The notes below the pieces were generated by a model. It ran no database searches, was not told where the DNA came from, and saw only the letters and a list, made by a program, of their open reading frames with translations. From Escherichia coli (GTDB lineage Bacteria > Pseudomonadota > Gammaproteobacteria > Enterobacterales > Enterobacteriaceae), in NCBI RefSeq assembly GCF_050320075.1, contig NZ_CP190018.1: a stretch of 64,000 nt of DNA, one strand, 5' to 3'. Positions 7,272 through 47,050 of this stretch are shown here, one piece after another. How positions within the stretch are numbered: the first letter of the stretch is position 1; the number at the start of each line of letters is the position of its first letter. The position numbers and the translations under genes are program-made.

Positions 7272-10121
7272 TTGAAATACCTTGCTTCTTTTCGTACAAC
7301 CCTGAAAGCCTCGCGCTACATGTTCAGAGCATTGGCGTTAGTGCTCTGGCTGTTGATTGCTTTTTCATCCGTTTTTTACATCGTTAATGCGTTACATCAG
7401 CGAGAATCGGAAATTCGTCAGGAATTTAATCTGAGTTCCGATCAGGCTCAGCGCTTTATTCAACGTACCTCTGATGTGATGAAAGAGCTGAAGTACATCG
7501 CTGAAAATCGCTTATCGGCAGAAAACGGTGTGCTTTCCCCGCGTGGACGAGAAACGCAGGCGGATGTGCCTGCGTTTGAACCGCTGTTTGCCGACTCCGA
7601 TTGTTCCGCAATGAGTAACACCTGGCGAGGCTCTCTGGAGTCATTGGCGTGGTTTATGCGCTACTGGCGCGATAATTTCTCTGCGGCTTACGATCTCAAC
7701 CGGGTATTTTTAATCGGCAGCGATAACCTCTGCATGGCCAATTTCGGTCTGCGTGATATGCCAGTGGAACGCGATACCGCGTTGAAAGCGTTGCATGAAC
7801 GCATTAATAAATATCGAAATGCACCACAAGATGATAGTGGCAGTAACCTCTACTGGATCAGCGAAGGTCCGCGCCCTGGCGTCGGGTATTTTTACGCGTT
7901 GACGCCAGTTTATCTGGCGAACCGGTTGCAGGCGCTTTTGGGTGTCGAGCAGACTATCCGGATGGAGAATTTTTTCTTACCTGGTACGTTGCCGATGGGG
8001 GTTACCATTCTTGATGAAAATGGTCATACCCTGATTTCGCTTACCGGACCAGAAAGTAAAATTAAGGGCGATCCTCGCTGGATGCAGGAACGCTCCTGGT
8101 TTGGCTATACGGAAGGGTTCCGGGAGCTGGTGCTGAAGAAAAATCTGCCACCCTCATCGCTAAGCATCGTGTATTCGGTGCCGGTTGATAAGGTGCTGGA
8201 ACGCATTCGCATGTTGATCCTTAACGCAATTTTGCTGAATGTGCTTGCCGGAGCTGCATTGTTTACTCTCGCGCGGATGTACGAGCGACGTATTTTCATT
8301 CCGGCGGAAAGCGACGCCCTGCGACTGGAAGAACATGAGCAGTTTAATCGCAAGATTGTCGCCTCCGCGCCAGTGGGTATCTGCATTTTGCGTACCGCTG
8401 ATGGCGTCAATATTTTAAGTAACGAACTGGCGCATACCTATCTCAATATGCTTACGCATGAGGATCGCCAACGGCTGACACAAATTATCTGTGGGCAGCA
8501 GGTCAATTTTGTTGATGTCCTGACCAGCAACAATACCAATCTGCAAATCAGCTTCGTCCATTCGCGCTATCGTAATGAAAACGTGGCCATTTGTGTGCTG
8601 GTGGATGTTTCTTCGCGCGTGAAGATGGAAGAGTCGTTGCAGGAGATGGCACAAGCAGCGGAACAGGCGAGCCAGTCAAAATCGATGTTCCTTGCCACCG
8701 TCAGTCATGAGCTGCGAACGCCGCTGTATGGCATTATCGGTAACCTGGATCTGTTGCAAACCAAAGAGTTACCGAAAGGCGTCGATCGTCTGGTGACGGC
8801 AATGAACAACTCTTCCAGCCTGTTGTTGAAAATTATCAGCGATATTCTCGATTTCTCGAAGATTGAATCGGAACAGTTGAAGATCGAACCGCGTGAGTTT
8901 TCACCGCGTGAAGTGATGAACCACATCACCGCCAACTATTTACCGCTGGTGGTACGCAAGCAGTTAGGCTTGTACTGCTTTATTGAACCGGATGTGCCAG
9001 TGGCCTTAAATGGCGACCCGATGCGTTTACAGCAGGTCATCTCCAACCTGTTGAGTAACGCCATAAAATTCACCGATACCGGCTGTATAGTTTTGCATGT
9101 TCGCACTGATGGCGATTATCTCTCTATCCGTGTTCGCGATACCGGCGTGGGGATTCCGGCGAAAGAAGTGGTGCGCTTGTTTGATCCCTTCTTCCAGGTC
9201 GGAACGGGCGTACAGCGTAACTTCCAGGGGACCGGTCTGGGTCTGGCGATTTGTGAAAAACTGATCAGCATGATGGACGGCGATATCTCGGTAGATTCAG
9301 AACCGGGAATGGGTAGCCAGTTTACCGTGCGTATTCCGTTGTACGGCGCTCAGTACCCGCAGAAAAAAGGCGTGGAAGGGTTGAGTGGTAAACGCTGCTG
9401 GCTGGCGGTCCGCAATGCGTCGCTCTGTCAGTTCCTGGAAACCAGTTTGCAGCGCAGCGGCATCGTCGTTACAACATACGAAGGGCAGGAACCGACTCCC
9501 GAAGATGTGTTAATTACTGACGAGGTAGTGAGTAAAAAATGGCAGGGTAGAGCGGTAGTGACCTTCTGTCGTCGCCATATTGGTATTCCGCTGGAGAAAG
9601 CGCCAGGGGAGTGGGTACACAGTGTGGCTGCCCCGCATGAGCTACCGGCATTGTTGGCGCGTATTTATTTGATCGAGATGGAGAGCGACGATCCTGCTAA
9701 CGCTCTGCCGTTAACGGACAAAGCGGTCAGCGATAACGACGATATGATGATTCTGGTCGTGGATGATCATCCGATTAACCGGCGTCTGCTGGCAGATCAG
9801 TTGGGATCGTTGGGCTATCAATGTAAAACCGCGAATGATGGCGTCGATGCGCTTAATGTACTTAGCAAGAATCATATTGATATCGTGCTTAGCGACGTCA
9901 ACATGCCAAATATGGATGGTTACCGCTTGACGCAACGCATTCGTCAGTTGGGACTGACGTTGCCGGTAATCGGAGTAACTGCTAATGCGTTGGCTGAAGA
10001 GAAGCAGCGGTGTCTGGAGTCTGGTATGGACAGCTGCCTGTCGAAGCCGGTAACGCTGGATGTGATAAAACAGACGCTAACGGTATATGCCGAGAGGGTC
10101 AGGAAATCGCGGGATTCGTAG
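7272..10121 (+). CDS. rcsC: hybrid sensor histidine kinase of the Rcs phosphorelay
   Basis: 949-aa ORF; H-box SHELRTPL, HATPase domain, C-terminal receiver domain (VVDDHPINRRL...D); convergent with rcsB. Confidence 0.9.
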   Translation: MKYLASFRTTLKASRYMFRALALVLWLLIAFSSVFYIVNALHQRESEIRQEFNLSSDQAQRFIQRTSDVMKELKYIAENRLSAENGVLSPRGRETQADVPAFEPLFADSDCSAMSNTWRGSLESLAWFMRYWRDNFSAAYDLNRVFLIGSDNLCMANFGLRDMPVERDTALKALHERINKYRNAPQDDSGSNLYWISEGPRPGVGYFYALTPVYLANRLQALLGVEQTIRMENFFLPGTLPMGVTILDENGHTLISLTGPESKIKGDPRWMQERSWFGYTEGFRELVLKKNLPPSSLSIVYSVPVDKVLERIRMLILNAILLNVLAGAALFTLARMYERRIFIPAESDALRLEEHEQFNRKIVASAPVGICILRTADGVNILSNELAHTYLNMLTHEDRQRLTQIICGQQVNFVDVLTSNNTNLQISFVHSRYRNENVAICVLVDVSSRVKMEESLQEMAQAAEQASQSKSMFLATVSHELRTPLYGIIGNLDLLQTKELPKGVDRLVTAMNNSSSLLLKIISDILDFSKIESEQLKIEPREFSPREVMNHITANYLPLVVRKQLGLYCFIEPDVPVALNGDPMRLQQVISNLLSNAIKFTDTGCIVLHVRTDGDYLSIRVRDTGVGIPAKEVVRLFDPFFQVGTGVQRNFQGTGLGLAICEKLISMMDGDISVDSEPGMGSQFTVRIPLYGAQYPQKKGVEGLSGKRCWLAVRNASLCQFLETSLQRSGIVVTTYEGQEPTPEDVLITDEVVSKKWQGRAVVTFCRRHIGIPLEKAPGEWVHSVAAPHELPALLARIYLIEMESDDPANALPLTDKAVSDNDDMMILVVDDHPINRRLLADQLGSLGYQCKTANDGVDALNVLSKNHIDIVLSDVNMPNMDGYRLTQRIRQLGLTLPVIGVTANALAEEKQRCLESGMDSCLSKPVTLDVIKQTLTVYAERVRKSRDS

Positions 10122-44250: not shown

Positions 44251-44431
44251 GCCTCACCCCCTGACGAATACGGGCAGCGAATACAGCAACACAGCCGGAC
44301 GGGCAACAGTTACGCGCTTCTCGTTCGGTTGATGCCTCGACGTGAACAATACGGGAATCAGTCGGATTAAAGATGACAAAGCGCCAGATAAATGTGTTTT
44401 GAGAATGTTCGAGGGTAGGGGTAGTAGCCAT
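44243..44431 (-). CDS. hypothetical small protein (62 aa)
   Basis: Consensus AGGAGG Shine-Dalgarno 7 nt upstream of the ATG (minus strand ...ACAGGAGGCTGCCAAATGGCT...); first ORF after a structured leader. Confidence 0.5.
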   Translation of the reverse strand: MATTPTLEHSQNTFIWRFVIFNPTDSRIVHVEASTEREARNCCPSGCVAVFAARIRQGVRHA

Positions 44432-44591
44432 TTGGCAGCCTCCTGTAACGTTGGGATATACCCACCGCCGGAGGTGGTAAGCTCGATGGCGGTGGACTGT
44501 ACAGGGTTACCACAACTGGTGTTACAGGAAACCAGCCTGACCGAAGTCAGCCCCATACAGCCCACCATTGATAAGGCGTGCGCGTGCGCCG

Positions 44592-44617
44592 ATACAAAAA
44601 AAGACGCCTGGCGCGTC
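44592..44617 (-). terminator. intrinsic terminator/attenuator inside the island leader
   Basis: Minus strand AGACGC-gccag-GCGTCT followed by TTTTTTTGT; about 160 nt upstream of the 62-aa ORF. Confidence 0.6.
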
Positions 44618-44986
44618 TGTATCGCCTGTAACTCCAGCGGGGTGGTAATCCCGACACCCGTTTTATGAGGTGCGCAGGGAGTATATCCCGTTTTCTTGCT
44701 CATGTGGTCGGATGTGTTGAAGGTGTGCCCACCACACAAATCACATTGCTCACCAGCCGGAAATATGGCATTGTTGGCGATGCATTCAAGTTTAATATAT
44801 GCCTTCTGGCGACCCTCTGCGGTCGCCTTTGTTTTATTCGTAAGCAACATATTTCTTTTGTCGTTTAAGCTATGCGATTGTACGTTTCCGTTTAAAACGG
44901 AAGTGCTATTAGTTCAATTAATTCGTTCGTACGGTTTGAACTGAATAATAACATCAGCCATAATTTTTTATGGTTGAACGAAAACC

Positions 44987-45002
44987 TGCCCCTGTTTGGG
45001 CA
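44987..45002. terminator. hairpin downstream of alpA (bidirectional terminator-like)
   Basis: TGCCC-ctgttt-GGGCA followed by TTTTTG on the plus strand and by GGTTTTCG on the minus strand; ~75 nt after the alpA stop. Confidence 0.45.
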
Positions 45003-45077
45003 TTTTTGCCAGTATTCATAATGTTCTCTCTTAATTGTTTTGTTGCTTGATAGTAATCAGGCCAGCGTTAATCACAC

Positions 45078-45269
45078 TTATGCTTCACGAGTTTCTCTCT
45101 CACGTTCTTTCAACCAGGCGAGTACCTCATCTTCATACCAGCCAATGCGACGCAGCCCGATACGGAATCCTTTGGGGAACCCGCCTTTGTTAACCATCTC
45201 CGTTAGGGTCGAATCAGATTTAATGCGTAGCAAGGCCTTTACCTCTGGTCGTAAAAGAATAGCCCTCAT
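45078..45269 (-). CDS. alpA: AlpA-family phage regulatory protein (HTH, excisionase-like)
   Basis: 63 aa; pattern ILLRPEVKALLRIKSDSTLTEMVNKGGFPKG...IGWYEDEVLAWL matches AlpA/CP4-57 regulators; sits next to the integrase. Confidence 0.75.
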   Translation of the reverse strand: MRAILLRPEVKALLRIKSDSTLTEMVNKGGFPKGFRIGLRRIGWYEDEVLAWLKERERETREA

Positions 45270-45522: not shown

Positions 45523-46767
45523 TTATTTTATTCCGCGTAATCCTCTGTGCCCGCTGGCGATGGTTGTTCCGGTTGCGGCTGCTTCCACAAAATCACCCCA
45601 CCAGCACATTAACACTTTACGTTTTTCCAGGTAGTTGCTTCGGTTGTATGCCCGTCTAACTTCGTTTGTGTCCACGTGGGCTAGTGCGGCTTCGATCACG
45701 TCAGGTTCAAATCCTTCTTCATTCGCCGCCGTGCTGAATATTGCGCGTAGTCCGTGAGATACCAGCACACCAGCGTAACCCATTCGTCGTAATGCTGCGT
45801 TTGCTGTCTGGCTGCTCATTGATTGCACTGGATTTTTAAGACTTGGGAAAACATGCTCCCTTCGTGCGCTAATCGGCTTCATGGCTTCAAGCACTGCCAT
45901 CGCCTGAGCGCAAAGGGGGATCACATGATCACGGCGCATCTTCATGCGTCCGGCTGGTATCGTCCAGGTTGCCGCCTCAAGGTTGATTTCTTCCCACCGT
46001 GCGGCGGAGGCTTCGGCTGGGCGGGTTGCGGTTAACAACTGCCACTCAATCAGCAATCTGGTTTGCCGTTCTATGCTGGCGATCGATAAATCGTGCATTA
46101 GCTGCGGTAGTTGTTCCGGTCGGATGGTTGGCATGTGCTTTTTGGTGGGGGAAGGGAATGCCTTGCGAACGTTCGCGGCGGTGTTGATGTCAATCAGTCC
46201 ACTGTTGGCAGCAAAATCCATCACTTCATTGATGCGCTGTAAAACGCGTTTCAGTGTTTCCAGGTTGCCACGTGCCTTGATGGGCGTGAGTATCTCAACA
46301 AAGCGGCGAGCGGTGAGAGTATCTATCGGTGTGTTTCCGATATACGGGAATACATATTTCTCTAGCGAGCGCCAGATGTCCTTGATCGTATTGTGGGCGA
46401 GATTCTGGTTTTTTTTCATTTCGTACCACAATGCGGCCACATTTTCGAACGTGTTGCCCTGTCGTCGAGCCTCTGCTTCGAGTTTTTGCCGTTCGTATTC
46501 CTGCGGGTCGGTTCCTGCCGCAATTAACGTCCTGTACTCGCTACGGCGTTTTCTGGCATCAGCCAGGGAGACTTCATCAAGCGAGCCCAAACTAATGATT
46601 GTTCGTTTTTTGTTCGATGGTCGATAGTAGTTGAATCGCCATAGTTTCGAACCAGACGGCTTAATAACGAGAAAAAGCCCGCCGCCATCCTGTAAGGTGT
46701 ATTCTTTTTCCGCTGGTTTAGCTGCTTTGATCTGTGTGGTGGTGAGTGGGGTCGCCTTTCTTGCCAT
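45523..46767 (-). CDS. int: tyrosine recombinase / integrase, P4 family
   Basis: 414 aa; N-terminal arm-binding domain (LTTTQIKAAKPAEKEYTLQDGGGLFLVIKPSGSKLWRFNYY), catalytic region with R...HGLR...Y; adjacent to the tRNA 3' end. Confidence 0.9.
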   Translation of the reverse strand: MARKATPLTTTQIKAAKPAEKEYTLQDGGGLFLVIKPSGSKLWRFNYYRPSNKKRTIISLGSLDEVSLADARKRRSEYRTLIAAGTDPQEYERQKLEAEARRQGNTFENVAALWYEMKKNQNLAHNTIKDIWRSLEKYVFPYIGNTPIDTLTARRFVEILTPIKARGNLETLKRVLQRINEVMDFAANSGLIDINTAANVRKAFPSPTKKHMPTIRPEQLPQLMHDLSIASIERQTRLLIEWQLLTATRPAEASAARWEEINLEAATWTIPAGRMKMRRDHVIPLCAQAMAVLEAMKPISARREHVFPSLKNPVQSMSSQTANAALRRMGYAGVLVSHGLRAIFSTAANEEGFEPDVIEAALAHVDTNEVRRAYNRSNYLEKRKVLMCWWGDFVEAAATGTTIASGHRGLRGIK

Positions 46768-46973: not shown

Positions 46974-47050
46974 TGGTCGGCACGAGAGGATTTGAACCTC
47001 CGACCCCCGACACCCCATGACGGTGCGCTACCAGGCTGCGCTACGTGCCG
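46974..47050 (-). tRNA. proL: tRNA-Pro (anticodon GGG inferred)
   Basis: Minus strand reads CGGCACGTAGCGCAGCCTGGTAGCGCACCGTCATGGGGTGTCGGGGGTCGGAGGTTCAAATCCTCTCGTGCCGACCA: 77 nt, cloverleaf-compatible, GGTTCAAATCC T-arm, encoded CCA. Confidence 0.9.

Follow-up and report, generated by a model that had tools for sequence, protein, structure and literature searches.

The leader that separates alpA from the small-ORF/primase operon of a ~9-kb integrative element in the Escherichia coli chromosome is most probably (about 85%, by our own estimate) an antisense-RNA immunity and early-control module of the P4/P1 type, carried by an island related to the P4-like satellites and the PICIs. All positions given here refer to the window, the whole stretch of 64,000 nucleotides that was analysed. 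The original prediction, a riboregulatory leader that gates read-through into the small-ORF/primase operon, is supported by matches to the isrK and C4 RNA families and by covariation. Its comparison with P4 immunity was an understatement, as the leader is homologous to the P4 immunity region and carries isrK and C4 in the same order. The module is already known: it has been described for P4, P1, Gifsy-1 and the Gram-negative PICIs, and nothing found here lies outside the known system. In the PGAP annotation, the leader appears only as a pseudogene of an 'ash family protein', with no RNA genes.

The island lies downstream of yejM and adjoins a tRNA-Pro gene (46977-47050, minus strand). Its elements on the minus strand are, in this order, an integrase gene (45523-46767), an AlpA-type HTH gene (45078-45269), the leader, icd (62 aa), a 61-aa ORF, a DUF4222 gene, a DUF927 primase gene (41606-43741), an SSB gene, a ProQ/FinO-family gene (40372-40908) and a PerC-family gene, with yejO lying ~1.4 kb beyond the latter. 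The integrase, alpA, primase and icd ORFs are all intact. As in the Gram-negative PICIs, the int, alpA and primase genes share one orientation and are located beside a tRNA gene; the late and capsid-related genes of these elements are absent from the island. Since no capsid, packaging, late or sid/psu/delta genes were found in the island or between the PerC-family gene and yejO, the ~9-kb element corresponds to the front half of a P4-like satellite or of a Gram-negative PICI. A search with 12-nt seeds found no att repeat for the far end of the island. The int-alpA RNA of Rfam (RF02996) was not detected in the int-alpA intergenic region of the window at E ≤ 1; it is present in a related island (L224, 13087-13155, minus strand).

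Iteron-like repeats occur in the window at 41439-41480, 41564-41580 and 39231-39289. The sequence CTGCTGACTTGTCCCAAAATG stands twice in tandem just 3' of the primase gene, and the core of its complement, GGGACAAG, recurs at three more sites. Because PICI origins sit downstream of pri, these repeats are a candidate replication origin. In the unannotated ~1.4 kb between the PerC-family gene and yejO, an RNAI-like Rfam match (38700-38787, plus strand) reached 23.5 bits as compared to a gathering score of 47, and is probably due to chance.

Two RNAs were detected in the leader when the surrounding 12 kb was scanned against Rfam. The upstream one, an RNA of the IsrK or P4 seqA type (44597-44673, minus strand), is a full-length match to RF01394, with 61.6 bits against a gathering score of 50 (E = 1.8e-11). 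It is composed of two 5' hairpins, which are followed by an intrinsic terminator, and contains the sites a1 and b1. The terminator, a hairpin with a U7 tract at 44595-44618 on the minus strand, was found independently by a terminator scan; the intrinsic terminator previously read at 44592-44617 is thus real, and is that of the isrK match. IsrK corresponds to the seqA RNA of P4, and C4 to the P4 CI RNA (PMC3632133).

A predicted PLE-like promoter precedes the IsrK-type RNA (44680-44708, minus strand). It consists of the -10 hexamer TATACT (44680-44685), a 17-nt spacer and a weak -35 hexamer, ACCACA (44703-44708). The -10 hexamer aligns with the TATGAT or TATAGT of the relatives and of P4, at an equal distance from the IsrK 5' end, and is invariant in four variants of the lineage. 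In the relatives, the -35 hexamer is TTGATC or TTGCCT and the -10 hexamer ends ~7 nt before the IsrK 5' end. The homology of the window to these relatives stops just upstream of the -10 hexamer, the -35 hexamer ACCACA matches at three of six positions, and the promoter falls below the cut-off of the promoter scan. By analogy with P4, P1 and Gifsy-1, transcription would start at about 44673, from the promoter with its -10 hexamer at 44680-44685.

The downstream RNA, of the C4 or P4 CI antisense type (44485-44572, minus strand), matches RF01695 over the full length of the model (1-87), with 78.7 bits against a gathering score of 45 (E = 1.8e-14). Its gene begins 24 nt after the end of that of the IsrK-type RNA, which has its own terminator. 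The C4 architecture comprises a 17-bp closing stem, a UUCG hairpin (44537-44550), a second hairpin with the segment b' in its loop, a junction containing the segment a', and a 3' GCCA directly after the stem. The minimum free energy fold of the segment (-40.9 kcal/mol, z = -4.1) agrees with the Rfam model, and compensatory changes were observed in 10 of the 17 pairs of the stem and in all five pairs of hairpin 1, which is the CUGAC-UUCG-GUCAG hairpin already pointed out at 44537-44550. Both CI and C4 are RNase P substrates, their processing having been described for P1 and P4 (PMC5499578). Maturation of this kind goes with a tRNA-like stem and a 3' RCCA, to which the GCCA of the window conforms. 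A single sRNA of ~270 nt, as had been envisaged for the leader, is unlikely, since the homologous systems make two stable RNAs, a terminated one of ~77 nt and a processed one of ~80 nt (PMC4825925, PMC3632133).

The two RNAs and the start of icd are connected by complementary segments, all on the minus strand. The exposed, single-stranded C4 segments a' (44507-44513, junction) and b' (44521-44531, loop of hairpin 2) are complementary to a1 (44642-44648, loop of hairpin 2 of IsrK) and b1 (44625-44632) inside IsrK, and also to a2 (44474-44480) and b2 (GUUACAGGAGG, 44439-44449) downstream of C4. In 51 collected loci, isrK precedes C4 by 25-140 nt. The base pairs of a structure that we specified were tallied in an alignment of 44 sequences, of which 39 were distinct. 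With the IsrK and C4 helices together with a1:a' and b1:b', 98.6% of the cells in the 44-sequence alignment were paired, and with a':a2 and b':b2 instead, 98.1%. When the partners were slid by one to three columns, pairing dropped to ~40%, and none of 500 shuffles attained the observed value. The four trans pairings were kept in 94-100% of the cells, and compensatory pairs were present at 6/7 positions of a1:a', 7/8 of b1:b', 6/7 of a':a2 and 7/11 of b':b2 (26/33 in sum). A covariance analysis across homologous islands had been suggested along with the original prediction; all of the helices covary in the 44 homologues.

The helix formed by CCACCGCC (44488-44495) and GGCGGTGG (44462-44469), which was likewise noticed earlier, covaries across the same 44 homologues. 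It spans 44462-44495 on the minus strand, with 95.8% of the cells paired (26-67% in the slid control) and compensatory changes in 5/8 pairs. This alternative helix takes the 3' arm of the C4 stem, and thereby competes with the closing stem and exposes a2 in its loop.

Three sister islands (L329, L330 and L331; 94%, 93% and 95% identical in searches) were aligned with the window. One of them retains the a and b sequences of the window. In E. coli 042, b is altered jointly in IsrK, C4 and the ribosome-binding site (b1, b' and b2), while in JNEC-KY178 both a and b are altered at all three places. The joint switching of the site copies between sister islands is a signature of heteroimmunity, and argues that selection acts on the module in this lineage.

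The first gene of the operon, icd (44243-44431, minus strand), encodes 62 aa and matches the Icd-like model NF033153 of NCBIfam (E = 2e-16), which is also hit by P4 Kil and by the Icd of a P1-like phage. BLASTP of the window Icd against P4 Kil gave no alignment, and their relationship is seen only through the NF033153 profile. The AGGAGG Shine-Dalgarno sequence assigned to this ORF is indeed present at 44439-44444, 7 nt before the ATG, and is covered by b2; the masking of this ribosome-binding site by the antisense RNA is judged from complementarity only. A C-rich, G-poor stretch, with a C/G ratio of 2.3-2.7, extends over ~44343-44460 and includes the first ~90 nt of icd. The C-rich 5' part of icd is a candidate Rho loading site if translation is blocked. 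In P1, according to Biere, Citron and Schuster (1992), translational repression of icd reportedly comes first and Rho termination follows.

Several related loci differ in the arrangement around icd. Tandem Icd, C4 and Icd occur in IMG/VR loci, such as L044 (2501-3128), L021, L023 and L047; the second C4 follows the first Icd-like ORF at a distance of ~150 nt, and no isrK was detected ahead of it. In two related islands that have no isrK/C4, SymR-like Rfam matches (L205, 2880-2952, minus strand; L207, 3135-3207, minus strand) of 33-35 bits, below the gathering score of 61, lie on the opposite strand at or within the annotated Icd-like gene, and may represent a different antisense control. An sRNA-Xcc1 match (79.6 bits; L004, 4023-4106, plus strand) was found ~0.8 kb 3' of the isrK/C4 of an Stx phage, inside the annotated antB2.

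The leader is also spanned by an eta-like ('ash') ORF of 198 codons (44254-44850, minus strand), identified from the ORF list, Pfam Phage_ASH and phrog_29966. The ORF has its start 5' of the internal promoter and extends across IsrK, C4 and most of icd. Phage_ASH covers its residues 56-143, which correspond to nt 44685-44422, exactly the block from IsrK to b2. In the phrog_29966 profile, positions 35-124 are matched by the eta-like ORF and the adjoining positions 125-186 by Icd. In 41 of the 44 homologues no stop codon interrupts the frame between IsrK and the icd ATG, and the distances from the IsrK start to the C4 start (103, 106, 112, 145, 151 or 190 nt) are all 1 mod 3. The frame found in P4 is eta, with 199 codons; its ATG overlaps the stop codon of vis, and it crosses PLE, seqA and cI before entering kil. 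In E. coli 042 the eta-like ORF, as in the window, has 198 codons. A reading of the 'ash' ORF as a pure artefact of translated RNA was rejected, since the frame is kept open, the indels are in frame and P4 eta is the same ORF. Its conservation identifies the 198-aa ORF as genuine; it corresponds to P4 eta and belongs, alongside the RNAs, to the same control. The original prediction had set the reality of this protein against the leader. The ORF is conserved, but the leader RNAs are not refuted by it, as P4 eta overlaps RNAs in the same manner (PMC10111431).

In P4, Kil is a truncated Eta, while full-length Eta is synthesised solely on transcripts of an upstream promoter, in coupling with the alpA homologue; translation of Eta prevents termination, and homologues of CI and seqA occur in 'Bro zone' genes of PICIs (PMC10111431). 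The eta-like ORF of the window starts at an ATG at 44850 with a weak Shine-Dalgarno sequence, 228 nt after alpA. It is out of frame with icd in this lineage because the spacer between the Shine-Dalgarno sequence and the ATG is 1 nt shorter, and does not end in the kil/icd frame as an eta-type ORF does in the P4 arrangement; in most homologues the two are in frame. The 228-nt spacer between alpA and the eta-like ORF contains a weak terminator-like hairpin (44987-45002) and was found only in this lineage (65/5426 genomes). A 21-codon ORF after alpA (44953-45018, minus strand), with a plausible Shine-Dalgarno sequence, was rejected as a gene: its ATG is ATA in 042, and two other variants carry a 1-nt deletion in it.

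The 5' part of the eta-like ORF contains a conserved block (44729-44837, minus strand) with the hairpin GGCGACC-N6-GGTCGCC (44808-44827). The 110-nt block, which starts with AAAACAAAGGCGACCG, is ~80% identical in 708/5426 E. coli genomes, far more than have the rest of the leader. In the mapped related islands it directly follows alpA-like genes, with or without isrK/C4, and in some relatives it comes after a convergent YlcI/YnfO gene. Together with TTTGTTTT, the hairpin at 44808-44827 scores as a terminator on the plus strand. Substitutions in the block are mostly non-synonymous in the frame of the ORF, and two loci break the frame. We regard the block as a conserved segment of the domain-swapping ORFs of the Bro network (PMC10111431).

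The FinO-like protein of the island had been proposed as the partner of a leader-derived sRNA. IsrK is listed among the ProQ-associated sRNAs in Salmonella (PMC5391140), and FinO domains bind terminator hairpins (PMC9977716). Homologues of the ProQ/FinO-family protein (40372-40908), with 58-80% identity, occur in many islands with the alpA, 5' block, icd and primase arrangement, most of which have no isrK/C4. Among 25 fetched loci with FinO homologues, isrK/C4 was found in four, and by Rfam in 1/10. The gene was set aside as a specific IsrK/C4 partner, as the association is not specific, and a dedicated partnership of FinO with IsrK/C4 is speculation.

The module resembles several characterised systems. 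In P4, the Rfam matches to isrK (8615-8692) and C4 (8420-8507) stand in the same order as in the window, and both have an antisense RNA placed between two targets complementary to it, and a first gene of the Icd/Kil family. The AlpA/Vis-type gene just upstream, the primase operon downstream, and the ~199-codon ORF across the RNAs, with its start 5' of the internal promoter, are also shared. The P4 CI RNA pairs with seqA and seqC, and this pairing leads to termination (PMC4825925). On the other hand, the IsrK-to-C4 spacer is 108 nt in P4 and 24 nt in the window, the -35 hexamer of the window is poor, and the P4 eta start overlaps the vis stop codon, whereas the eta-like ORF of the window starts 228 nt after alpA and is out of the icd frame. 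The primase is of the DUF927 type and not P4 alpha, and the island has no sid, delta or psu.

The immI region of P1 and P7 has a C4 RNA with two exposed segments that face a1 and b1 upstream and a2 and b2 at the ribosome-binding site of icd, again the first gene. Over 44673-44378 the window shares 77% identity with a P1-like phage, in which a C4 Rfam match is also present. The gene downstream in P1 is the antirepressor gene ant, as compared to a replication module in the island. In the isrK-orf45-anrP region of Gifsy-1, IsrK, read-through of its terminator and a processed C4-like RNA (STnc1160) downstream are likewise found (PMC4825925). The stretch 44673-44412 is ~83% identical to Stx phages, and an Stx-converting phage has isrK and C4 Rfam matches in the same order. 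Unlike in the island, the targets of control in Gifsy-1 and the Stx phages are an antirepressor and an antiterminator, and a trans-acting role as translational activator has been demonstrated for IsrK. The PICI 'Bro zone' arrangement (Mageeney et al. 2023, PMC10111431), with an int/alpA zone, a Phage_ASH ORF zone containing CI/seqA and a replication zone, also matches the island, which differs in having no late zone and in ending after the SSB, FinO-like and PerC genes.

By analogy with P4, P1 and Gifsy-1, the P4 details being taken in part from secondary sources, the module may work as follows. Most transcripts from ~44673 would stop at the terminator and yield an IsrK-like RNA of ~77 nt. Transcripts that read through would be processed, by RNase P cleavage and 3' trimming, into a stable C4 RNA of ~80 nt. 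By pairing with a2/b2 of newly made transcripts, and also with their a1/b1, this C4 RNA would block the translation of icd; Rho could then terminate on the untranslated C-rich RNA, and the primase operon would be off. Escape would come from transcripts of the upstream alpA promoter, on which translation of the eta-like ORF across the leader would prevent both folding and termination. Since the eta-like ORF is uncoupled from alpA and out of frame with icd, the P4-type escape may be altered in this island, or may not operate.

The role of a1/b1 in this scheme could be that of a co-target, as in P4, or could belong to IsrK as a trans-activator, as in Gifsy-1. In the Gifsy-1 mode, the short IsrK-like RNA would activate in trans, by opening the read-through transcript for the first ORF, and would not be a co-target of C4. 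Such activation has been shown for the Salmonella IsrK (PMC4825925), and the helix 44488-44495/44462-44469 illustrates that competing leader folds are possible; the strongest covariation of IsrK is nevertheless that of a1/b1 with a'/b' of C4, as in P4 and P1, which makes this mode unlikely, if the most credible of the alternatives. That the Ash/Eta-like protein alone is functional and the RNA structures are incidental is far less credible, and is the last explanation we would choose. The Phage_ASH match, the matches of the eta-like ORF to several PHROG 'regulator' families and the open frame with its frame-preserving indels agree with a functional protein. However, coding does not predict dozens of two-sided compensatory pairs between sites ~100-200 nt apart, and the changes in the a and b sites freely alter the encoded residues. 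Moreover, the P4 immunity factor is an RNA (PMC4825925, PMC5499578), and the dual use of one stretch as ORF and RNA is documented (PMC10111431). The island could also hold a decaying remnant of the module, devoid of regulatory function. The weak -35 hexamer, the eta-like ORF that has been separated from alpA and shifted relative to icd, and the missing late and packaging genes would fit such decay. Against it, all helices and the four trans pairings are intact in the window, as are int, alpA, primase and icd, and the sister islands have swapped specificity at three sites with unbroken complementarity, which implies continuing selection; we consider a remnant quite improbable.

The original prediction placed a sigma-70 promoter at a TACAAT hexamer, under the control of a palindrome, and derived from it one long leader or sRNA (~270 nt or more) that is attenuated at the terminator. 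Both elements exist (44877-44902, minus strand), inside the lineage-specific spacer between alpA and the eta-like ORF. The 17-bp palindrome (44886-44902) reads TTCCGTTT-T-AAACGGAA, but with 8-bp arms around one base it is not strictly perfect. The hexamer TACAAT (44877-44882) is present, but its role as a promoter is unsupported: it has no -35 hexamer, for which reason the promoter scan did not report it, and it lies 200 nt upstream of the homologous -10 hexamer, whereas the homologues put the RNA start at 44673. A transcript from ~44870 would include the eta-like ATG (44850), so that a TACAAT promoter could in principle supply translatable, immunity-resistant transcripts. The 64-kb window contains 12 perfect 8+8 palindromes with spacers of 0-3 nt, and in the divergent sister island JNEC-KY178, TACAAT is changed to AACAAT and one arm of the palindrome is altered. 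A motif scan of IMG/VR with the palindrome returned seven contexts, all of them unrelated. On these grounds, a function of the palindrome as an operator was rejected, and the whole proposal appears improbable. The recurrence of AAAACGG (44657-44664, 44687-44694 and the palindrome) was also dismissed, since an 8-mer repeat within 450 nt is expected by chance. In a variant of the antisense scheme, escape would have been rewired: the eta-like ORF, cut off from alpA by the 228-nt spacer, would be served by the TACAAT promoter gated via the palindrome, in place of AlpA-coupled translation. In another variant, independent of the first, the FinO-domain protein of the island would act as the chaperone of IsrK/C4. 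We hold these variants to be a long shot.

The P4/P1-type antisense module, which we prefer over these readings, leaves the current understanding of the immunity system unchanged. The main value of the finding is a correction of annotation: the stretch labelled by PGAP as a pseudogene holds two RNAs that most likely silence the replication module of the island. In addition, nearly identical E. coli islands have exchanged immunity specificities, an observation relevant to the means by which satellites and prophages escape cross-repression.
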